The notes under the pieces are model-generated. The model saw only the letters and a program-made list of their open reading frames with translations, had not been told where the DNA came from and searched no databases. Positions 3,001 to 18,726 of a DNA stretch of 64,000 nt are shown here, one piece after another; position 1 is the first letter of the stretch, and each line of letters opens with the position of its first letter. The position numbers and the translations under genes were made by a program. Source of the DNA: Microbotryum violaceum (Eukaryota); the NCBI GenBank assembly GCA_001244265.2, contig CDLV01000005.1:1302001-1366000 (forward strand). The letters run 5' to 3'.

Positions 3001-6000
3001 CTACGGCGAGCTCGTCGACATCCTCGCGCCGTTGCGCCTGTCTCTCTGCTCGTTAAAAATCGGTTTCGCACTGCTCTCCCAACTTGCTAACCTCAAGCTG
3101 GCTAGTGCGTCCTCATCGGAACCTTTTGTAGAGCTCCTTCATCACCTCGTCAGCTTTCCCAAAGTGGCTCACAAGCATAGGATTGATGCGATCGACCTCC
3201 CGCTCACGATTAAGGCCAATCAGACACCCCTCTCACCGACGCGTGCAACATTGCTCCAGGTTACGGCCCTCATCAGCCAGCTCACGCACAGCGGCCGATT
3301 TGATCGCGATGCTTTGCGCCGCCTCACCCAGCTGTACGATCGTCTGCATTATCTCTGGACCAGCGATCGTCGCAAGGACGAAGAGGCCGCGCGTGCTGCT
3401 GAAAGCCTCTACAGATCCAAAGCCGACGTGGAGCAGATTGCTACAGATGAGGAGCTCGAAGCCGCCGAATTTGCCCAGCTGTTCCCTACGTTTGAGGATG
3501 CGCTGGACTCCAACGACTCCGTCGACAAGCCGCCGGCGACGAATGGTTCGATCACCGCCGCCAACGGCGCCACGGCCTCAACCAAGGTGTTCCATCACCT
3601 TCAGCCTCAGGACGAGGCGCTGCTCGCCAAACTGCACGTCGGTCTATTAGGAAACGGGCGGATTTACGACTTCGTTGGCAAGTGCGAGAAGGAATATGAT
3701 AGTATCCGTACTTCCAGCACCACGACACTATTGCCAGATCTTTACGCTCATCTCGACGAGGGACTTGATCGGGCCTCGGCGGTGTACCGAGTTCGCTCGC
3801 TCGTCGAGCTCAGCCAGTCAATGAAGCCTTCGACATCATCCCACCCAGCTCTGTCGCGGGACCGCGACTTCTACACTGAGCCCGACGTGCAAGAGACGGC
3901 CAAGGCTGTTCCTATCCTACTCGCCACTTCAGCGCGTCTCTCTGATCTTATCGAGACGTGGCCTGACCAGATGGTTCTGAAGAACCTCCACGAGCGCTGC
4001 CAAGCGGTGCTTTCGCTTTCGTCGCAATCTCCGATCGCACAAGTCCTAACAGCTATCGAGCAACTGTTGCAACACACCGAGGACTGGGAATCATACGCTA
4101 GTTCCGAACACTCGCTGGCGACAAACCGTGCCGAAATCATTAACCTCATCATCGAGTGGCGTCGAACCGAGCTCACGTGTTGGTCACGTCTACTTTCAAC
4201 GATCGAGAAACGCTTCAAGACCCCCGTCGCAACGTGGTGGTTCCGGTTCTACGAAACAATGATCCGCGCAGCGCCTGGCGTCGACGAAGACCCCGCCACT
4301 CCGACGCACGAACAGAAATCGCCGGCCGAGTTCAACCGCGAACTCGTGGCCCTGCTGGATTCCTTCTTTTCGACCTGCTCGATTGGGCAGTTCCAGGCTC
4401 GTCTGGAGCTGACCTTGTCGTTCGCCAATCTGGCGAGCAAGCTTGGTTCTCAATTTTATGAGGATACGGTGAGTTGCTGCCAGCCATGAAACGTGTCCAG
4501 ACCCTCCGCTGACATGAAGCGGGTACCACTTTGTTTCTACAGATCCACGATGGTGCCCGCTCCTTGAACACTGTTGCCCAGCTCCTTTTGAACATCCACG
4601 CATTCTACGATCAATTCACCCCTCGCATTTCTGCGTTCCTTTGCACCGAGCGAGCAAAGATCGACAAGGAAGTTAACAACCTCATCAAACTCGCAAGCTG
4701 GAAGGATGTGAACGTGTACGCTCTGCGCCAAAGCGCGATTCGCAGTCATCACCAGCTCTACAAGTTCGTCCGCAAATTGCGAGCGGTTCTACAGAAGCCC
4801 GCAAGCGACTTTTTCACTCGCTCAGAAAGTGCGCAGTCGACCGAATTATTGTGAGTTTCTTGAGGTGAAGCTAAGTGTGGCATTACGCGTTCCAAACTGA
4901 CAGTATGTGACCTCATGATTTGAATAGCATCGCCCCCCACCTGGCGACCCGCGATTTGGCTTTGGTTCTTAACTCGATGCCTAGCTTACCCAAAGAGATC
5001 ACCGCGGCAACGACCACGAGTCACATCGCCAATTTGGATCGCACGCTCCGTCGTCTCGCCGCGTGGCAGACGACGTCGCTCGGACCTTTCATCGGCGCCA
5101 ACCGCGCTGGACAAGTTGATGCGTTCGCCGTAGAGATTATTCGCACATCAAAGGACCTCAAGAGCGAGCCGCTTGGGGAGGAGGAGGGCCGCGACCAGCG
5201 CCTTAAGTCGCTCATAGCACGTAAGCGTCGCGCTTGGATCGAATTGTTGCGCGAGATGAAACGAGTGGGCCTGTCGCCCTCGCCCGCCCCGGCCATCGTC
5301 GACCGCCTGAAGGATGCTGGTCATGTCTACACGCTGCCATCGTCGAGGCGTGTCTTCTCCCTCGACGTCTCTCTCCTTCCCGAAGACCAACGACGCCTGT
5401 TGCGCGAGGTCGACGACTACCACTACAGAATGACGTCTGAGCTCCCTGCTCTTCGGGCGTGTCCCGCCAACCACCACGACGACGTTTCGACTCGCGAGGT
5501 GCAGCGTGCGATCGGTTCGATCGAGTCCGGTGTCGCCATGAGCTTCGACAGTCGAGTCCAGCTCGTGCCGGCAATCATGTCTGCATCCCGCCTGAGCTTC
5601 ATTGCCAGCAAGATGGAATCCGTCGGAGCCGAGCCGATCGGTCAGAGCGTTGCGACGATCAAGGCTCTCGCCGAGTCACTGCTCGAGCTCGTCTGCGAAG
5701 TCTCGAGCGGTCTGTCGGACGCACGCGTCGAGCTCAACAACCACCGTGTCGCGCTCGACGGTCGCCCGACTGACGACTTGTCGGTGGTCGCCAAGCTCAT
5801 CGATGATTCCGATCGCGTACTCTTTGATGATGTCGAGCAACTACGAGGACTGGCCGCCATCGACTCGTTCGACCCAGTCATAGGTACCAGGCAAGAGCTC
5901 GAGATCATACGAACCGCGCACACTCACCTGCGGTCGATCGTCGATGCTTTCACCATTCTCGAAGCGCCGGTCTCGGTTCGCTGTCTCGTCGACCCATTGG

Positions 6001-9000
6001 GCCGGTGGATCCGATCCCTACGCCTTCCATCGGTCGAACCTGAGACGGTCGGCGCTTCCAGCGCTGTAGCAGATCTCGACAAATTGAACACACAGCATGC
6101 CACTCTCATCGATTCAATCCTGGTCATCGCTCAAGAGCTTCGCACTCGTGCCGAAGGGATGGAGAAGGTAGACCCCGATGGCGAAACGCGCGACCACGCG
6201 ATCAAGCTCGATCATCGCTCCTTGCAGGAGACTATCGCGGTCTGGCGATCTGACGAAATTCTGGACCAAGCCGTCGCCTTGGCGCGTTCTGCTCATGCTC
6301 TCTTGGGCTCTTCGGTTTCTCTTCAGCCCGCTGTTTGCGCGCTTTTGCTACGCGTGGCCCCCTTCATTCGCCTTTTTGTGGACTTGTTGTCCGACCACCT
6401 CGTTGAGTACCTGCGCTGGATGCGAGCCATCCTCAAGCTCGCCTACGTCGCCTCCACCGTCGTCAAGGAGCTTGCCGCGCAAGGGTTCTGCCGGCCCGTG
6501 GAAGATGATGGGAAAGGTGGTGAAGAAGCGGATGGCAAGACCTCGGACGGCACTGGAATGGCTGATGGCAAAGGCGCCAAAAACGTAAGCAATGAAATCG
6601 AGGACGAGTCACAGATTGAAGGACTCGAGAACGATGTGCAGCAAGAGAAGGAGAAGAACGAGCACCAGGACGAAGAGGATGGTCAAGACGATGCAATCGA
6701 GACGAACATAGACTTTGAAGGCGATCTCGAAGACCGAGGTGATCAGGACCAGGACGATCAGGACAAAGATGACGAAGATAGCGACGAGGATGAGGACGCG
6801 CCGGAACCGGACGAGCAAGTCACGGATGTCGATCCGCTCGACCCTTCTACGGTTGACGAGAAGTTCTGGGGCGACGAGGCTTCCAAGGACGAGCCCAAAG
6901 ATCCTGCCAACGAGGAGCTCAACCAAGAGACCGAGCAAAAGTCCGGCAAGTCCGAGATGACCGCCAAGGATGATCAAGCCCCGGAGCCGAAATCAGAAGG
7001 CAAGGACTCGAATGCCGAAAAAGACCAGCCCGAGCAGCCTGAGGAGGAGAAGAGTGGGCGTGAGATGGAGCAGGATGGAAAGGACGAAGCCGAGAAAGAA
7101 GGAGATGAGGTCGAGAACGGGGAGCAGGATGACGACGAGGGGGAGGATCAAGATGCCCCACCCCAAGCCGACGACAAAGACCGATTGAACCACCAAATGC
7201 CCGAAGGCGACAATCTTGACTTGCCGGAGGACTTGAATCTTGACGGGGAGGAGGAGAAGGAAGATCAAGCCAAAGATTTGGACCTGGACGACATGGATGT
7301 CCCAGCTGGTATGTCCGGCGAACGGCCTGCCCCTTTGTGGATCAAACGGTTTGCTGATCTTTCACGTCTGAAATCTCCTACAGATCCCGACGATGGCAAC
7401 CACGACGACGGCGACGACCAGCTTGACGAGATGGGTGACTCGAACGAGGGTCCCGGCGAGGCGGACGACGCATTAGTTGCCGACGCCGACGCCGACGATG
7501 GTGAGCCACAACCCGACAACCCCGAGGAAGATGCGCCGCAGCCGGATCAACAAGCATCGCTCGACGACTCGTCTGGCGGAGCTCAAGATGGGGAACAGGG
7601 CGGCGAAGGATCCCAAGATAAGAGTGCCACCGCACCTGCCGATCCGAAGCCATCATCGACCGAAGCACCCACCACTTCCGGCGCCCAGCAGGAGCTTACC
7701 GATGCCATGGATCCGAGGCAAGCGCCAGCGGACGATGCCGAGGACCAGGAGATGAACACCGAAGACGATGCAGCCGAGGCTCACCTTTCGGCCCCTTCGA
7801 ATGCGGCGAGTGGGACGTCAAAAGAGCGATCGGCCGCCACCGACCCTCAAGCCCAATCGCAAGCTGATCGCTCGACGCCAGCCCAGCCCCAACGTAGCTT
7901 GGGCGATGCGATGCAATCTTGGCGCCGTCGATTGGAGCAGATTGCCGACATGAGCGAGGTCACCGAAGAGTCCCCTGCCGAAGTCGATCATGCCAGCAAT
8001 GACAAGGACGGCGAGGTCGAGTATGTCACTGAGGGACAAGAGCACGATGCAGACGAGCAGGCACTCGGACCGGCGAGCGAAGAGCAAGTCAAAAAACTTG
8101 AGCAGTTGCGACTTGGCGACGAGGAGGAGCCGCAAAAGCACTTTGATGCCGACGATGCAATGCAAGTCGATGAGCCACCTACCGCCGATCCGACTAACCA
8201 GCCATCGTCGACGATCAACCTCGACGGATCTTCCCTTGCCGAGACCGACGCCAAGGCCATTCCTGCTACCGAGTTGCGGGACCAACATCCCGTGGACCCC
8301 GAAGACGATTCTGCGCTCGACGACGAGAAAGCCGATCATCTCGAGGATGAGGACGACGAGCTTCGCTCAAGGACACTCGCCGCCCAGGATGACGCTGAAG
8401 CCGATCACCAAGTTGAACAGGCCATGTTGCTGTGGCGTAGTGGAGATGACCCGACCATGACTGCTGATGGTGTGTGGAGGTTGTACGAATCGTTGACGCG
8501 CAATCTCTCGTATGCTCTCACGGAACAACTTCGTCTCATTCTCGAACCCACGCTCGCGACCCGACTGAAGGGCGACTATCGCTCTGGCAAACGCCTCAAC
8601 CTCAAGAAGATCATCCCCTACATCGCGTCCGAGTTCACCAAGGACAAGATCTGGTTGCGACGAACTCGACCGTCGCAGCGCGAATATCAAATTCTGATCG
8701 CGATCGATGACAGCAAGTCAATGGCTGACTCGCACTCGGTGCACCTCGCCTTCCAGTCTCTGGCCCTCATCTCCCGCGCCTTAACTCGCCTTGAAGTCGG
8801 TGGCATCTCCATTTGTCGATTCGGCGACACAATGGACGTTTTGCACCCTTTCGAGGGCGGTCAACTCTCCGATGACGCTGGAGCTAGACTGCTCGAACAA
8901 TTTACCTTCTCTCAACGCACGACTGATGTGCGCCTGCTGGTCGAGCGATCGCTCACTCATTTGGCCCTCGCCAAGGATGCGGCCCGCTCCGGCAAGTCCT

Positions 9001-9485
9001 CGCTGGCCGCTGGTGACCTGTGGCAGTTGCAAATTATCATCTCCGACGGCATGTGTCAAGACCATGGCGCGCTCCGAGCTCTCCTTCGTCGCGCTGCGGA
9101 GCAGAAGGTCATGTTCGTATTTGTCGTCATCGACTCGCTGCACCGTCAGACCCTCGAGACCCACTCGGGCTCTTCAACCCCCGTTACTTCATCAGCATCG
9201 TCCACAGTCAACCAAAACTCAATCTTAGCGATGCAATCCGTGTCCTACTCTAAGGGCAGTGACGGTCGACTCGAGCTCAATATGAATCGGTACCTCGACT
9301 CGTTCCCGTTCGAGTACTTCGTCGTTCTGCGCGACGTCGAGGCGCTTCCCGAGGTTTTGAGTGCCACGCTGAGACAGTTTTTCGAAAGGGTCAGTGACAG
9401 CTTTGCTTTCCTCGTCGCGTCTTGCTACCCGGACCTTGTGCTGACTCGCACTCTTTATCTTCACCAGGTCTCGTCGGATCGATGA
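1..9485 (+). CDS. MDN1: Midasin (Mdn1/Rea1) AAA-ATPase, 3' part, multi-exon, 5' end outside window
   Basis: Last AAA module (GHWLLIEDANLCSPSVLDRLNSLFEP...PHPDFRL...ELSRAMRNR), long linker ORFs (2435-4489, 4531-4854), D/E-rich region and C-terminal MIDAS/vWA domain (GDYRSGKRLNLKKIIPYIAS...IAIDDSKSM...IISDG). Frame changes are explained by GT-AG introns (e.g. ~982-1048); stop at 9483-9485. Confidence 0.96.
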
Positions 9486-9867: not shown

Positions 9868-12800
9868 TCAACCCTTTCTGGCCGTCGTCGCAGCGACGTA
9901 CTTGCCCTTCTCTGCATCGAAGCGACCTGTGACGCTCGCTACGGTCGGGGAAGCGAGCAAGTCGGCGACGCTTCCCGCGATGGGTCTCGAAGCCCTCGTG
10001 CCCCTTGCCCTCTCGCTGCCTTCACCAACACTTCCATCCACGACCAAGACCGACTCTGGCCGACTCGGTTCCGTCAATCTATTCGTCGCGCTCGAAGTCG
10101 AGGGCGACGCAATCGTCGATGACGAAGCCGGTGCTTGTTTGGCAGCAGCAGCGGCGAGGTATTTCTGACTAACGTATTTCCCTTTGGTCGGGTCGTAGAT
10201 CCCTGTCACGGCACCAACGCTTTCGGAATCCAACAAAGCCCTAAGGTCACCTTCCAATGGGGCGGCCAGGCGCGTTGCTCTTGAATGGGTCGGCACCGAA
10301 CGCGGTCGAGGAGGTGGGACGACGGGTGGGAGGAGCTGTTGAGCCGCTGCGGAGGACGTCGAGGCCCGAGGGGACTTTGAGGCGCGAGTAACCGAAGCTG
10401 TACGTGCGAGGTTGTGCGGTTTCCGATCCGCGAGTTTGGAATCCGAGTATCTCCTCTGCTTGGGCTCATTGACGATCAATCGACCGGGCAAAGACCTCCT
10501 CGGTGCGCCATTCGACGAAGTCGATGTCGACGCCGACATGGATTGTGAAGGCGGTTGCGGGCTGAGCAAAGGAACAGGCTTCGGAGGAGCAAGAGCGAAC
10601 AAAGGTCCTTCAATGTCGACAGGGGCACCTTTGGCGATGTAGCGTCCCTTTTCGGCATCGTAGCCTCCGCTGACTCGGAGGACCGCTGGGGCGGCGAGGA
10701 TATCGCTCAGGTTCCCGGCAAGAGGCGCACTTCGTCGTGTGCCTCGTTCACCAGGCTTGACAGGCTGCGGTGGGATGACAGGCTTTGGTTCGGCGACACT
10801 TTTGCCGAACTTGGTTTTGGACTTGGACGAGCTCGCATTTGTCGACGCGACAAGCACTTGACCTTCGTCGAGTTGCGAGTGTCGTCGAGTCGATCGAGGA
10901 TTGGCCGAAGCGACGGGAGTCTTCGAAGTCGAACTCGAAGCAGATGAAGTCGACGGTGCTGCTCCATCAACGGACATTCGACTGCGTTTGCGTTGCGTCG
11001 ACGTTGAAACCGCAGCTTTGGTCGAAGTCGTCGAGACGCGGGGACGGCGGGTCGCCTGGGCTGACGAGCCTGAGGCCGAGGATCCCGGCGCAGAAGGGGT
11101 AGGTACGTTCGACGAGTGAGCACTATTCGTCGAGTGGTCTTGATTGGTTGAAGATTGCGGGAAACTGTTCGTCCCACCGTCAAAATCAGTTTCAATTCGG
11201 GTGATGTGAGCCTCGTGCACGTTGAACTTACTTGAGCATCAACAACAGCGCCGCGGCTTCCTGCGTGTCCGTGTCCCTCAAATCAAGCGCATCAATCGCC
11301 TGCCCGTCACCCAGTCCCAACATCTCCTCATCCAGCGTCTCATCAACCATCATCGCGACACCCCCCTCGTCTCCTTCTTCCTCCCCCTCCTCAACTTTAG
11401 GCTTCACATCCTCCATAATCACATCATCGACCTTCTCTCCGTGTATTCCATTCTGCCGTCTTCGACGCCTCTCATCATCCTCGTCATCCTCATCGTCATC
11501 ATCATTCTGGCCCGCTCCACCACCTCCTTTTCGGGGCCTGGAGCCGAGCCGAAAACTTTGCGTCGCGCTGGCGCCCGCCGCGAGGGATGTTGAAGAAGAA
11601 GTCGACGTCGAAGCATGCTTCGGATCATCCCCATTGGTCGTCGTCGTCGAGGCCGAAGATCCCGAGGCGTCATTGACGGCATGGGTCGTGACGAGAGCGC
11701 GTAGTTTAGGTATGCGGATGGGCACGCCAAAAAAAGACGAGGTTGAGATGGTTGCTCGGACGACGTCCTTGTGGCTGTGTGAGTCGGAATCCATGTCTGA
11801 ATCGAGCTCGGCCGTGCTGGAGTCTCGAGGTGGGATCGAGGCGCGCGTCGTACCGGAGGTGCTTCGACGGAGGTAGGGTGGAAGCGGGGTCGGATCTCGA
11901 GGAGGCAGGCTTTGACGTCCTTTGGGACCGATCGAATGGTTGAACCTCTTTCTGGAAGGTGGCATGGGTTCCGAACCGACCTTCTCGTAAGGTGACGCGA
12001 CACTTGAGGAATCGAGAGGCGTCTCCGGGACACGACCATACGCATCGTCTTCGACAGCGCTGACTCCACCCGTTGAGTGGAGCCCAGCCTCGTCCATCGA
12101 CAAGGCAATAGGTACAAATCGGCCCAATTCGACTTCGCGATCATCGCCATTCGCGTCCGTTTTTGACCTCTTCCTTGGGCCACCTGTGACCTGTGACCCC
12201 TTGACGACGACAATCCCGACAAAAGGCTGTTCCTCGGATACGGACCTCACCTTCCGCCTCTTCGATGCCGGTCCACGGAGCTTGTTCTTGGTGGCGGCGG
12301 CGGGCGTCGAGGATTTCCTCTTGCGGGGTGACGAGGTCGCTTTGGTGACGGTGACGATCTTGGTTGATCGATTCCTCTTCCTCGGTGCCGGCTTTTGGAG
12401 TTCCTCCTCCTCTTCTTCTTCCTCTTCCTCCTCCTCTTCCTCCTCCTCTTCCTCCTCCTCCTCCTCCTCATCATATTCTTCCTCTTCCTTCTCCTCTACG
12501 GGCGCCTCTTCATCCGCCTCTTCAGGCTCTTCCTCTACAACCTTGGGCTTCCTGACCCTGGCCCTCTTCGGCTTCGGCTTCACAGTCGTACTGGCCTCCG
12601 TACTCGCTCTACTCCTCGAAGGCCTTAATCTAACCCTCTTCGGCTTCTCCGCCACCTGCTTCTCCCTCTGTTTCCCCTTCCCCTCTCCCTTTTTCCCCAC
12701 CTCCTCAACGGCACCCCCTTTCCTATGACTCCTCCTCCTCTTCTCCTCTTCCCTCCTCATTTCCTCCTCCATCCGTTCCCTCTCCTTTTTCCTCTCCCTA

Positions 12801-15163
12801 GCCGTCAAAACCTTCTTCTTAGGTTTCTGCGGAACCCTGACCAAACCCGTATAAATCGCGATCTTCTTCCTTTCGTCCCATGCGTAATCGTCCTTGTAAA
12901 CCGGGGGAGGCTTCATCTTGGGATGAATGAGCCGAGGTCCGGAACGCAATTCGAGGTCTGACAAGAGACGATTCGGGTTGAGGGTAGATGAGGAGGAAGG
13001 GGAAGGGTGGCGTGAGTTAGTTCCTCCTGCTGTGACGGAGATGGGTGTAGGCGTAAGGGAGCGATTCGCTCGGTTCGAATGAAGGTTCAAGGGTAATGAA
13101 CTTGATCTAGTTCGCGTCGATGACCGCACTTTCAAAGCGTTGATCAACTGATTCGTCACCGACGTCGAAGGGGTCGAATTCGTTCCAACACCACCACCAC
13201 CATTCAAGGAAGTCGAAGCGTGGTTGTCCGTCTCCGTTGCTCGAACAGACGACATCCTCCTCGTCCCGTATCGACTCTCCGGTCTGGGAGAACCAGGGTG
13301 AGGTGAACTCGTCGAGGATTCCCCTCCTTCGTGATCCGAGACGATCGTGGTCGTGTTGGCGAGTTTGGAGAGAGGGATCACTGGTGGGTTCACGAGAGAT
13401 GCTTGGGTCGCTTGCGAGGAAAGTTTTTTGGCTCCTCGGGCGGGTTTGGGGGTGAAAAACCCGCGTTTGAATCTGAACGAGTGGGGATGTGATGAGGACT
13501 CTTTACGTATGGAAGAGCAGAATTCTCGTCGAACTCACTTCTCGCAGGTGGCGCACATGCAGCCCATGTTGTCGCGTTCAAAGTAGTGGATGCCTGAGGT
13601 CACGAAAGGGAGATCAGTGCCTCGTGGCACACTCTGCGGCCCTCTTACTTTTCATCCCGGCACTGACCATAATGCGTAAAGATCTCCTCGTCGGGTTGAA
13701 TATCCTCGACGACTTTGAAGGACATGACGTTCCCGACGAGATAAAACTCGACGTTGTTCCTACAATCGTGCTGTCGAGTCGAAAAAAGCGCACCGTCAAC
13801 TCGATCCACCTTCTCCCAAGTACGTCCACCCCATTCCATTCCCCCGTATAAGACCCACTCACATTAACGAACCTCGCCGGTCCCAACAATAAACAAAAGC
13901 ACTTTTTCCTCTCCGACCAAAGGATGGAGAAATCGGACCTGCCTCCATTCTCCCTCATCTCATCATCATCCTCGTCGGTCAAATCGGCAATACCGCCTTG
14001 TAACCTAATGATCTCCCCCTTCTGAAAGGGCCGTGTGGCGAACACGCCTACTTCGATAAAATTATTCTTGGGAGGGGTGGGACCATGCGAAGTGGAAGGT
14101 TGGAGGAGGTTCAGAGCGATCGAAGAATCGGCGGGGGACAAACGGGGTAGGGCGACGACGCCTGCTGCGTTCGTAGGGAGGAGGGATCGGATCGAGGAGA
14201 AGGTGGACGGTTTGCGCTGTTTCTTGGCGTACCTGTATCACGAATGGTCAATCGCTCGAGCTTCGTTCGGAGGGGAATGTGCACGCTCATTCGTATGCTC
14301 ACCTGTTGGTCTCGTGGAAGGCGATGCCCGTATCGGGTCTCAAGGCCGCGGCGTAGCGTTTGAGATGGGTCTTGAAGATGTCATAGTCGTCGTCCTCGTA
14401 CTTGTTCATGAAATTTTTGAACACGTTGATGCTGAAACGTAGACCAAATCAAGTTGTCAACGATCACGCTCCGGAGCGTGGACGGGGCCCGGCACGGCGG
14501 TTTCCTCCCCGCGGCTGGTGAAGTTGAGGGCGTGGCTTGCCCGCCTCGCCTCGCCTGGACCGGGATCACTCCGATCAAAGCGACTACGCTGCTCCCGCAA
14601 GCCCATTGGGTGTAGGAAACTCACGTGCATAGTTCCTCTGTCGCTTCCGTAGCGGTCAATTCGGCTTTCCTCAACTTTGAATCACGAGAAAGATTTGAGA
14701 TCAGTGAACCGGAGCGCGATTGCCGGCGTTCGAAAAGGCCGGTCGGTGATCAATGTAGCGGAGGCAGGCGAAAGATTCGATCCCCTCCATCGTCGATCCT
14801 ACATTCAACATCCAACATCCAACACCCCAACCTTCCACTCCAGCCCAGCCCAACCACACCCCTCCGCACTCACCCTTTTGACGACTTTCAACACCTGTTC
14901 GAGGTCAGGTTGCCTCAACCTCGTCTCGGCGCGATCGTGGCGATCGATCTTGCCCGTCCTACGCCCCGACACGCGATCTTCTTGGAAAACGCAAATGTCC
15001 AAGATCACTCGACTGATTACAGGGGAAGATGGAATCAGTTCAATTCAGTCAAGATGCGCAGCGAGAGAGGAATCGACAACCCCATTCCCTCCCCCTTCAG
15101 CTCGCAGGAGGAGAACTGGCTCGGGTCTCTGGCCATTCAAAGTGACGAAAAAACGAATCAAAG

Positions 15164-15215
<52 letters not shown>

Positions 15216-15427
15216 CTCACGTGCAGATATCATCCGCATCAGCAAGGAATTTGAAATCCAACGCCGCGTTCGAGTGAAATCCCTTTTTGTGAACGCACGG
15301 AAAAAGCTCTTCTCACTAGTTAGCTCCCCCCGTGTGCCGAGATTCGGAAAGTTGATCGACGCTCTCCCTCCCTCCTCTCCCTTTGATCGCCAACAAAAAA
15401 AAAAACAGGACGTACCACGAGCGCCAT
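9868..15427 (-). CDS. SET9: Set9/KMT5 histone H4K20 methyltransferase with very long low-complexity C-terminal extension, multi-exon
   Basis: Inferred ATG at 15427 (MALV|GFHSNAALDFKFLADADDICT). SET domain DFSILWSERKKCFCLLLGPARFVN|HDC..N...EIFTHYG and post-SET HYFERDNMGCMCATCE. Spliced in frame into ORF 11228-13393, then via intron 11165-11231 (GTAAGT...AACAG) into ORF 9868-11220. Confidence 0.85.
12399..12490 (-). repeat. (GAG/GAA)n trinucleotide repeat encoding a poly-Glu tract in Set9
   Basis: tcctcctcttcctcc array; translates to EEEEYDEEEEEEEE... Confidence 0.9.
15163..15200. repeat. Poly(A) homopolymer of about 38 nt (poly-T on the sense strand, inside a Set9 intron)
   Basis: Seen directly; lies just downstream of the GTGAGT donor at ~15220 on the minus strand. 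Confidence 0.9.
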
Positions 15428-15789: not shown

Positions 15790-18292
15790 CTATCCGACCA
15801 TCGCACCGCCTCCACCCAGCCCACTCCCCACCACTCCGCCACTCTTCACATTCTGAATCAACTTGGTCACGACGCCGAGTGCCTTGGTCCTTCCTTCCCT
15901 GAACAAGAACCGATCCCCAACACGGATGAATTCGGCGTGTTTGATGAACCGGAATTGAACCCTGCGCGGAAGGATGGCTTAGTGCTTGGGTCTTGGTTCA
16001 AAAGCTCATGTGCGCGAACTCACGTCGCCCTGTCCCCCGTCCTGATACAAGCCTTATCGACAATAGCCTCGATCTGTACCGTCTGTCGAATAGGCCCGAG
16101 GTGCATCATGGCTGAATGCATTGAAATCGGGAATGGACCACAACCCTAGAGTCAGTCCTTGGTGGGGTGTGACGACCATACAAAGTTATTGACGTACCTT
16201 GGTAATGGGATGAAATCAAGGTGTTGTGATACAGGATCAAGACTTGACCTTCGAACCTGGAAACGGCCACGGGTGGAATCTCGGTCTTGGCCAGCAGGAC
16301 CATACCTGTCACAACCAAACCAATCATGCATCAGTGTCTTTGATCCCTGCACCCACTCGACCAACTTTGAATCGACCCACCTTTCCTAATTTGACTCCTC
16401 TTGATCCTCTTCAACGCGAATGAGACTGACTGTCCGGCCTCGGCCCTATTCACGTTGACCCTCTTCCTCTGAATACTCTTCACCGCCGTCGTCACAAACC
16501 CACCCAACGAATCCGGGCCCAACAAGACCGTATCGCCGACATTGACCACCCCACTCATGATGGTCCCACTTGTGACCGCGCCTACGAACGGTACGGAGAA
16601 TACGTCCGAGATGGAGAATTCGAAATCGGCGTCGAGGGGGAAATGGGCTTTGGAAGCGATCGGAGCGACGTTGAGGAAAGTTTTGATCAGGTTCAGTCCT
16701 TGACCGGTGACGTTCGAGACAAGAAAGATGGGGCACGCTTTGGCTTGAGCGAACGAACAGGCCAGTTCACAGGCCATACCAGGATCTTTGACGAAAACGG
16801 GGGTTTTGCGACACCCGGGAGAGCGAAGGATCTTGACGAGTTGTTTGATCGTTTGTTCGAGTACGTGCGCGGGGGTCGAATCAATTTTGGTCACCACACA
16901 CACGACGGGCACGGAAAGTGCCAACGCGACAGAGAGATGTTCTTTGCTCATCCCGATCAATCCTGCGTTCGCCCCGACGATCAAGAGCACGAAATCGGGT
17001 GAGGTCGCGGTCAGACCGAAAAGCGTGGTCTTGAGGTACCTCTCGTGTCCGGCCAGATCAGAGAAACTGATAACTTTGCTCGCCCTGGCCGAGATCTCTT
17101 CCCATGACAATTGTTGCTTCCTCAAGCCCGTACCCTGTTGGAATACGGGTGTTTCGGGCTCGGGTGATGTTGAAGCTGCGGGGATGGGGTGGGTTGATTT
17201 CTCGAGTAGGGCCGCATGAGCAGCTTCGGGCATGACGGCTTGACCTTTAGAGGTGAACCCAAGCAATTCCATCCCGACCGACGAGGTCCTGCCCGATTCG
17301 ATCTCATGCTTGTGACGAAAGAGGGAAACGCGAGCTCTCCCCCTGCCATCGTCCAAGCGTCCCTTGGTGAGTACGCCCAACAAACTCGATTTACCGGCAT
17401 CGACATTCCCGACGACGGCGACCCTGACCTCGTTCAAATCCTGTGCGCTCTCGGCGATTTTGCGGACCAAGATTCTCAGGGCCTTGTTGCTCCACCTTTG
17501 GGTGGTGGCTTCGTCATTGACTGCGCTTGGGGTGGTGGTCAATTCCGGTGGATTTGGCCGTGTATCGAGGTGTGCTTCGTCAAAGGGGTTGTGGAGGACC
17601 GAGGCGTCGGCGCCAATCTCGTGCGCAAGGGTCTGGATCGTTTCGACAATCTGCTTGACCTGGAGCGGCGTGGGTGGAGGTGGCTCCGAGTCGGCGGGTA
17701 AGGATGACTCGGGAACGTCAAACAGAGACGAGAGGGATGTAGAGGTGAGGTTGTGTGATCCAAAGTGAAGTTCGAGTTCACCGTGCTGGAGATGGAGCGT
17801 ACGAGCGAGCAGGGAGGCGAGCGCGGCGTTGGATCGCTCGGTGGGGGTGAGCAGTCGGTCCTGTGCGAGAAATGCAAGGTGTGTTAGTCTTGATCTCGCC
17901 GTGTATGGGGTTTCAGGGTCCTGACTCACCCTCAACGGTCTCGGATCCTCGTCGTCGTCGTCGACCACCTCCGCATTGTTATCGGTTTGCTCCATGAGGT
18001 GGTGCGAGTCGGCAAGTGGGGTAGCGGCATCCGCTCCCACGTTGACCTGGCCCGTTCCCCCCAGGCTCAGTTTGGCCAACTTGTCCTGCACGGTACTCTG
18101 ACTGTGGAGATGGTGATGATGAGCCTGGACCCTGGCCATGGCCTCCTTCTGGTGGGCCTGTTCGAGTTGATCCTGGAACTGCTTGAGCGAAGTCCGTTCG
18201 GTCGGCGGTAAGGGAGTCGCAGAGAGCAGTCGTTTCTCGTGCCGTGTGGTGCGAGGTGGGTTGAGCATGCTACTTGGTGTAGAGGTGGACAT
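15790..18292 (-). CDS. GTP-binding protein 1/2 (GTPBP1/2) family translational GTPase, multi-exon
   Basis: G1 VGNVDAGKS, RHKHEIESGRTSSVG, G3 DLAGHERYLKTT, G4 TKID, domain II VPFVGAVTSG, C-terminal FLFREGRTKALGVV. Stop inferred at 15790. Confidence 0.93.
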
Positions 18293-18726
18293 GGTCGGAG
18301 GGAGGACGGTCAGCGTGTACGAGCACAGGAAGCGGGAAGCAAGGAGAGGAGAGGAGCGAAGAGGCCTAACAATACTCGGCGCTGAGCGAGTTTGAATCAA
18401 GCACTAATCTATGCGCCTAATCTAAGCTAATCAACGCCTTTGACCATCGCCGGCCGGTGCGCATTGAGTCAAACCGACGGCGCGTGTGCCCCATTTGACG
18501 CGTGTGGGGGACCATTTTTCGAACCCGAACCCTGGGGCGTTTATTTTGGAGCGTTGTTTCTTCGTGTCAGAAAGCGACTCAGCACTAGAAAAGCCACTAT
18601 TAATTCCACTGCATTAGACTCGCCGCTGCCGGGGCGTGCAGGCTTCTCGATCGCGAGTGTCAGTTCAAGGTGCTCCAGATATCCGATCGCGAGCTCCGAG
18701 TCGATCACCCCCACACCGCATCTACG

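Follow-up and report, generated by a model that had tools for sequence, protein, structure and literature searches.

A class-restricted repeat module at the C-terminus of Set9 in Microbotryomycetes and its putative role as a nucleosome tether

The Set9 locus and its C-terminal repeats

The window (the whole stretch of 64,000 nucleotides of Microbotryum violaceum DNA that we analyzed) carries a Set9 gene on its minus strand, modeled from 15427 to 9868 as 10 exons with nine GT-AG introns, one stop, and a product of 1,485 aa (Table 1). Eight of the nine introns were matched by joints in the assembled contigs of sequencing run X10. The joint that attaches the repeat exon (11164/11232) was seen in runs X10 and X3 and was absent from the unspliced run X6; run X1, guessed to be RNA, gave no joints at low depth (the types of runs X10, X3, and X6 are not on record). 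No single contig covers the whole gene, and the contigs break at the poly-Glu stretch. We infer the intron at 15220-15013 from homology only, and a spliced X10 contig (14874-15105) reads through part of it, which suggests intron retention or another transcript start. The neighboring open reading frames lie at 4911-9485 (+), a downstream gene that converges on Set9 and presumably resembles the C-terminal part of midasin (acidic tract, vWA-like end), and at 16331-18403 (-), which we take to be a GTP-binding protein of the GTPBP1/2 type. Within Set9, the EAAxxLLxL motif that closes the long exon recalls, as we take it, Sin3-interaction helices.

Table 1. Features of the Set9 gene, by position in the window
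Feature	Positions	Strand	Remarks
Repeat 1, residues 1194-1230	10636..10746	-	Basic RxTR head, then predicted helix-helix-beta-hairpin; column identity to orthologues 0.59
Repeat 2, residues 1349-1385	10171..10281	-	Mean identity to aligned orthologue columns 0.42
Repeat 3, residues 1441-1477	9895..10005	-	Column identity 0.43; ends 8 residues before stop codon
Lone NPRSTRR motif, ~50 residues upstream of repeat 1	10882..10902	-	RxTR head without folded body; in orthologue consensus
Last coding exon of Set9, three repeats and disordered linkers	9868..11164	-	Open frame; joint 11164/11232
Conserved EAAxxLLxL motif, end of long exon	11260-11234	-	Also in orthologue consensus
Long low-complexity exon, post-SET tail	11232..13472	-	Open frame; no Pfam family
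Poly-Glu tract in one open exon	12469-12401 (stretch where contigs break: 12396-12496)	-	
Conserved PPPxY..DYxWD motif, otherwise disordered middle of Microbotryomycetes Set9	12910-12875	-	Orthologue consensus; no Pfam family
Post-SET CxCxxC zinc site, residues 300-305	13561-13544	-	Set9 model translation
SET domain exons	13539..14232	-	Splice joints; 70-83% identity to Microbotryomycetes Set9
5' exons, N-terminal domain of Set9, start ATG at 15427	14303..15427	-	One intron by homology only

The gene had been read as Set9/KMT5, and this assignment held. Its SET part is 70-83% identical to 36 proteins, among them relatives named Set9/SUV420H, and all the named ones are from Microbotryomycetes. 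A profile of these relatives matched SUV420H1/H2 chains and nothing else in the PDB (10 of 10 matches, E 2e-23 to 6e-19). The sequence features that place a protein in the Set9/KMT5 (Suv4-20) family are present: a SUV4-20-type SET domain (with GPARFxNHDC at residue 248), a post-SET CxCxxC site, and an N-terminal domain, which lies before SET within the first ~310 residues that align to named Set9 at 51-54%. By analogy with the family, the enzyme would methylate H4K20. In fungi, a single Kmt5 is described as making all H4K20 methylation (PMC10553808), and a survey of fungal SET proteins describes the Set9/KMT5 group as carrying only the SET domain (PMC9692433).

One open frame, 9868-11238 (-), holds three 37-aa stretches, which translate exactly as the sequence-only reading gave them and which lie, as it proposed, at the extreme C-terminus, the last copy stopping 8 residues short of the protein end. 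The linkers between them are long and disordered (118 and 55 aa, 48% and 42% S/T/P/R, pLDDT mostly <55). The claim that the protein was kept while its DNA diverged was borne out by pairwise comparison: 17, 21, and 18 of the 37 residues are identical vs. 52-61 of the 111 DNA bases, third codon positions are alike in only 8-12 of 37, and different codons encode 13-15 of the 17-21 residues that are identical. In comparison with orthologues, the mean identity is 0.14-0.17 in linker columns vs. 0.42-0.59 in repeat columns. Selection on the repeat is thus supported by the pattern of sequence conservation. In run X3, synonymous differences made up 7 of 9 in the repeats vs. 5 of 12 in the linker and tail, which is not significant (p = 0.18; 21 differences used, from 40 listed of 226). 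The description of the copies as ungapped applies to this genome, where the three align without gaps; it does not extend to the orthologues, whose copies have indels of 1-4 residues (helix 2 tolerates the loss of 4 residues, and single-residue indels are tolerated as well).

When the 33-Mb genome was searched with repeat 1, only the three copies came back. A second genomic match (E 0.04, with a stop) was set aside as chance. With the three-copy window profile, the true copies score 8-52 bits, and in the chance control profiles reached at most 1.1 bits on reversed and at most 6.3 bits on shuffled proteins.

Conservation and distribution of the repeat

The sequence-only reading was to be given up if orthologues in related species lacked the repeats, but all 28 full-length Microbotryomycetes Set9 that we examined carry 2-4 copies: 21 have three, 4 have four, and 3 have two. 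This tally joins 23 proteins from the SET search with five more full-length proteins. Of the 36 SET-similar proteins, every one above 1,100 aa (23 in number) has 2-4 copies; no repeat is seen in ten fragments of 117-332 aa or in three models of 701-724 aa, one of which (P0019) is apparently half of a split gene model. P0019 (712 aa) and P0041 (631 aa, three repeats) come from the same strain, Microbotryomycetes sp. JL221, and from contigs of equal length, and are seemingly a single Set9 gene divided between two annotated proteins. The named carriers belong to Sporidiobolales, Meredithblackwellia, Phenoliferia, and unplaced Microbotryomycetes.

Copies can also be lost from gene models through an intron in the hairpin Tyr codon. 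In one locus (L020, 9736-9950), a 73-base intron splits this codon of repeat 1, and for P0018, modeled with two copies, a 99.5% identical locus reveals a third that an intron conceals. Four Sporidiobolales-like open reading frames (P0008, P0044, P0048, and P0053) are interrupted at that residue too, in repeat 1 or repeat 2, a hint that repeat and intron were duplicated together. A tree of 64 copies (48 columns) was poorly resolved, with first copies in Sporidiobolales forming a clade (support 100/100) and later copies mixed, a pattern that points to an old duplication followed by further gains and losses of copies.

Over 128 distinct copies, the repeat follows the pattern R-x-T-R-[RK]-S-x-P-[IML]-xxx-L-x-D-[LVI]-[VLI]-...-G-G-[WYF]-D-xxx-G-[RK]-Y. 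The RxTR head is present in 121 of the 128, and conservation is highest at the two head arginines (98% and 99%), Gly (99%), Pro (97%), Thr and Tyr (95% each), followed by Ser (84%) and the helix 1 Asp (74%). The mean charge is +3.0 for the head and -0.7 for the body (124 copies), and copies are spaced 49-246 aa from start to start (100 pairs).

Building a profile of the three repeats had been proposed as a check. Searched against 1.84 billion representative proteins, this profile gave 39 matches: 12 SET-bearing Set9, 20 SET-less open reading frames with whole repeats, and 7 unrelated repetitive proteins (P0049, P0059, P0061, and P0064-P0067), the last dropped as chance because they hold short pieces only, at <7 bits per copy; the profile consists of the three window copies only, and more distant relatives may be missed. 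Thirteen of the 20 SET-less frames can be linked to Set9, either through its middle region or through a named Set9 to which they are highly identical, and the other 7 matched no other family at the cut-off. Among the best 120 of 208 matches, we examined 84 further Set9: one, a Rhodosporidiobolus protein, has three copies, and the 83 from outside the named Microbotryomycetes set have none (scores of at most 4.2 bits). These 83, of which 68 are at least 600 aa long, come from smuts, Melampsora, Agaricomycetes, Mucoromycota, Kickxellales, chytrids, and unnamed entries; the named entries do not extend to other Pucciniomycotina classes, Tremellomycetes, or ascomycetes, and the named Set9 retrieved include none from Cystobasidiomycetes, Agaricostilbomycetes, Mixia, or Microbotryum.

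A metagenome scan with the SET pattern found three loci, two with three repeats downstream and a third whose contig ends ~1.1 kb past the SET match and shows no repeats. Scanning with the repeat pattern yielded 277 stretches, 0 of them confirmed. A word-indexed search with the three-repeat alignment returned 5,471 candidates, none of which scored; we count this as a false negative, because strong copies turned up in orthologues afterwards.

The module had been called unrecognized, a claim to be withdrawn on a match to a described domain, and none matched at the cut-off in Pfam, PDB sequences, or folds. One PDB sequence search with the repeat gave 0 matches and another gave 1, at E 1.6. Fold searches on both repeat models gave a best Foldseek E of 2.2 and 8.1 and no Z of 2 or above among 48,161 chains, and the ESM Atlas returned no usable feature match for either query, its structure rows reaching TM 0.31 at most. 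Because such searches are weak for a fold of ~40 residues, we do not claim a new fold. Two described families came nearest and were rejected. DUF4585 (PF15232) scored 17.5 bits on repeat 2 vs. a gathering cut-off of 27, and matched 0 of 21 orthologues at E up to 1. The Plectin repeat (PF00681) had no Pfam match on the repeat-bearing proteins scanned, reached an hhalign probability of 7.6% over 14 columns, and differs in array form, being a contiguous tandem where the Set9 copies are spaced. Each shares a short D-x-x-x-G hairpin word with the Set9 repeat, and a plectin-repeat protein matched profile positions 28-40; we treat the likeness as convergent hairpins.

In full-text literature on fungal Set9/Kmt5 and H4K20 (subscription journals, InterPro, and supplementary files were outside the scope), we found no description of C-terminal repeats, nothing on Set9 in Rhodotorula, and no account of basidiomycete H4K20 methylation. 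The module is confirmed as real, class-restricted among the Set9 sampled, and apparently undescribed, on a known enzyme.

Predicted structure and candidate functions

AlphaFold2 returned the anatomy that had been foreseen (an Arg anchor, a helix, and a beta-hairpin), with an unstructured basic head, two short helices, and a two-strand hairpin. One copy alone, the prediction first proposed, reached pLDDT 76 and pTM 0.33. Modeled together on a 27-sequence alignment, the three copies had bodies at pLDDT 75-87 and heads at ~50, with a pTM of 0.22 and no packing between copies. Each module is predicted to comprise a disordered RxTR[RK]S head (~+3), P-hydrophobic, two short helices, and a GG-aromatic-D-xxx-G-[RK]-Y hairpin. 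The variable spacing, the tolerance of a deletion in helix 2, and the low pTM suggest that the copies are independent beads that may fold only on a partner, and beads so spaced are suited to avidity.

The lack of predicted packing between copies also speaks against the idea, which we consider the least likely, that the repeats putatively fold back on Set9's own SET domain, N-terminal domain, or acidic tracts, or self-associate, and thereby regulate activity or condensates. Long poly-Glu and other acidic tracts could bind the basic heads; however, one SET domain does not need 2-4 copies, and the residue after RxTR is Arg in 63 and Lys in 13 of the 128 copies, so the repeat is not a methyl-lysine pseudo-substrate. 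A histone-tail mimic was rejected on the same excess of Arg over Lys. The cohesin motif F/YxF was also considered and rejected, as it occurs in only 5 of 128 copies.

We favor, at somewhat less than even confidence, the reading that the C-terminal repeats are a putative multivalent nucleosome tether, additional to the post-SET anchor. The last ~300 residues of Set9 appear as a flexible string of three independent ~37-residue candidate binding modules. In such a tether, the arginines of the head would reach into an acidic surface of the nucleosome, the simplest candidate being the H2A-H2B acidic patch that the sequence-only reading had raised, and the helix-hairpin body would fold on or beside the histone surface and give specificity. 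Two to four copies on long linkers would provide avidity and reach to neighboring nucleosomes, and this avidity could lengthen residence time or spread H4K20 methylation. The near-invariant Thr and Ser of the head may, by inference only, act as a phospho-switch.

Catalytic docking would still fall to the basic motif that directly follows the post-SET zinc site, with the repeats as an addition and not a substitute. We found an R[ST]xR or Rx[ST]R word 15-65 residues past the post-SET Cys in 58 of 101 Set9, vs. 15 expected from shuffles (median offset 40). Human SUV420H1 is described as having its acidic-patch anchors, R352/R357, shortly past its post-SET site (PMC10697951). With the word enriched near that place, catalytic docking is probably located there and the repeats are extra. 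The window Set9 has no such word at +15 to +65, its first lying ~75 residues past the Cys. Since words of the RSxR kind occur widely where disordered regions are basic, the repeat head resembles the post-SET motif only weakly.

The repeats do have what an arginine anchor needs, a conserved Arg in a flexible segment, although this feature is necessary and not sufficient, and acidic-patch anchors are described as carrying no sequence signature (10.1101/2024.06.26.600687). The same source names arginine-rich DNA binders as known false positives that mimic acidic-patch binders in predictions. This bears on the unlikely alternative that the repeats are putative small non-specific DNA-binding modules, with the RxTR head in the minor groove and the helix-hairpin on the linker DNA backbone. 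The charge of the head, the conserved R/K in the hairpin, and the +12 charge of linker 1 would suit such binding, whereas the slightly acidic body, the conserved helix 1 Asp, and the absence of any matched DNA-binding fold (in the fold searches above, weak at 40 residues) argue against it. A complex prediction of repeat 1 with the core exons of the genome's H2A (103 aa) and H2B (75 aa) scored 0.00 in two runs in which the partner stayed below pLDDT 50, the controls were unfolded, and the repeat alignment was unused; it weighs neither for nor against the tether.

One argument against the tether is that most of the conserved positions lie in the near-neutral hydrophobic body, which an arginine anchor alone does not explain and which a dock for a protein partner fits equally well. 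Each repeat would then be a putative fold-on-binding dock for a non-histone partner (HP1/Swi6-like, a PWWP protein, a remodeler, or a repair factor) that targets Set9 like Pdp1 in fission yeast or the HP1-binding region in KMT5C, the head serving as an auxiliary contact or phospho-switch. We regard this as possible but doubtful. Tolerance of the helix 2 deletion and of 1-residue indels is as in motifs that wrap a partner, and the genome holds candidate partners in one PWWP match (L018) and one chromo-shadow match (L019); the two most conserved non-glycine residues, however, are the arginines of the disordered head. Only one of the 128 copies has a PxVxL-like word (the HP1-binding pattern), and only one a His/Cys pair, which makes the HP1 chromo-shadow route of KMT5C unlikely. 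Short motifs in the disordered tail of KMT5C are described as cooperating with HP1 (PMC11723951), and S. pombe Set9 as needing Pdp1, but the only PWWP protein of Zymoseptoria is reported to be dispensable for H4K20me3 (PMC10553808). Finally, a universal acidic patch contrasts with a module that all 83 other Set9 examined lack (among the best 120 of 208 matches), a distribution that fits a lineage-specific partner.

Comparison with known tethers and other Set9 tails

How fungal Kmt5/Set9 finds its targets is described as little known outside fission yeast (PMC10553808). In Rhodotorula toruloides, a genetically tractable yeast, the module offers a handle on this: it is compact, can be deleted, is found class-wide, and sits at the very end of the enzyme. 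With the repeat come a new profile family for Pfam/InterPro and corrections to gene models that are truncated or split. Should it bind nucleosomes, the acidic-patch binders would gain a folded variant. The reach is limited to a single gene and, among the fungal classes sampled, to a single class.

Other fungal Set9 tails have their own duplicated motifs, unrelated to the Microbotryomycetes repeat. In smut-type Set9 (P0078-P0097, P0117, P0120, P0126, P0134, and P0153), 17 proteins have an LA-x-[YF]-W...RR pair as their best self-match (18-25 bits each, close to background when taken one by one). Rust tails of Melampsora type (P0119, P0121, and P0124) carry a KR..YWI..K..QLG pair (28-41 bits), and Mortierellaceae tails (P0108, P0115, P0116, P0154, and P0155) an ELExLxEWTI pair (24-36 bits). 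In Coemansia and Haplosporangium (P0129, P0151, and P0116; Kickxellales and some Mortierellaceae), the C-terminal part of Set9 holds an MSL3-like chromo/Tudor-knot, and P0151 has a PWWP domain too; the presence of such recognized chromatin readers in other Set9 speaks for the tether reading. A joint reading, to which we give low confidence, is that the Microbotryomycetes repeat is a putative new mini-domain for nucleosome binding, in which an arginine anchor is joined to a helix-helix-hairpin of ~30 residues; through it, one Set9 would bridge two to four nucleosomes and do without a reader subunit of the Pdp1 kind, whose place the repeat would take. Several such tail inventions would have arisen independently, with smuts, rusts, and Mortierellaceae each duplicating an unrelated short aromatic/basic motif and Kickxellales fusing chromo/PWWP readers. 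If this is true, fungal H4K20 targeting would evolve by swapping tail tethers.

Among known tethers, the SUV420H1 anchors (Y349/R352/R357) are, like those of the repeats, arginines in a disordered segment C-terminal to SET, and are described as binding the acidic patch (PMC10697951). That anchor is single and lies ~33 residues past the post-SET Cys (the Cys placed by PDB alignment), and its fungal equivalent is probably the post-SET basic motif, whereas the Set9 repeats lie ~890-1,140 residues downstream and have a predicted folded body. The PST repeats of MDC1, ~41-aa units in a disordered region, offer a precedent for the tether and are described as binding the acidic patch by avidity under a phosphorylation switch (PMC6858307, 10.1101/2025.01.10.632395). 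Both repeats are ~40 aa long, sit in P/S/T-rich disordered regions, and are lineage-restricted. In mammals, however, PST forms 13 contiguous tandem copies, in contrast to the 2-4 spaced copies of Set9 with their predicted helix-hairpin. Judged against the PST description, membership was rejected, as the Set9 copies are not contiguous and an S/T-P dipeptide occurs in 57 of 128 only; the whole-library search gave no sequence link, and the likeness to MDC1 would be a functional analogy only.

The heterochromatin retention domain of KMT5C (Suv4-20h2) likewise joins short conserved modules by variable linkers in a disordered C-terminus, and is described as working by avidity (PMC11723951). It uses hydrophobic HP1-binding motifs and His/Cys, patterns that are each confined to a single Set9 repeat of the 128. 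Within its own family, the window enzyme shares the N-terminal domain, SET, and the post-SET CxCxxC with Set9/Kmt5/SUV4-20H (KMT5B/C). It differs by a long tail of ~1,180 residues after the zinc site that ends in the repeats, and its full-length Microbotryomycetes relatives carry 2-4 copies of the same module.
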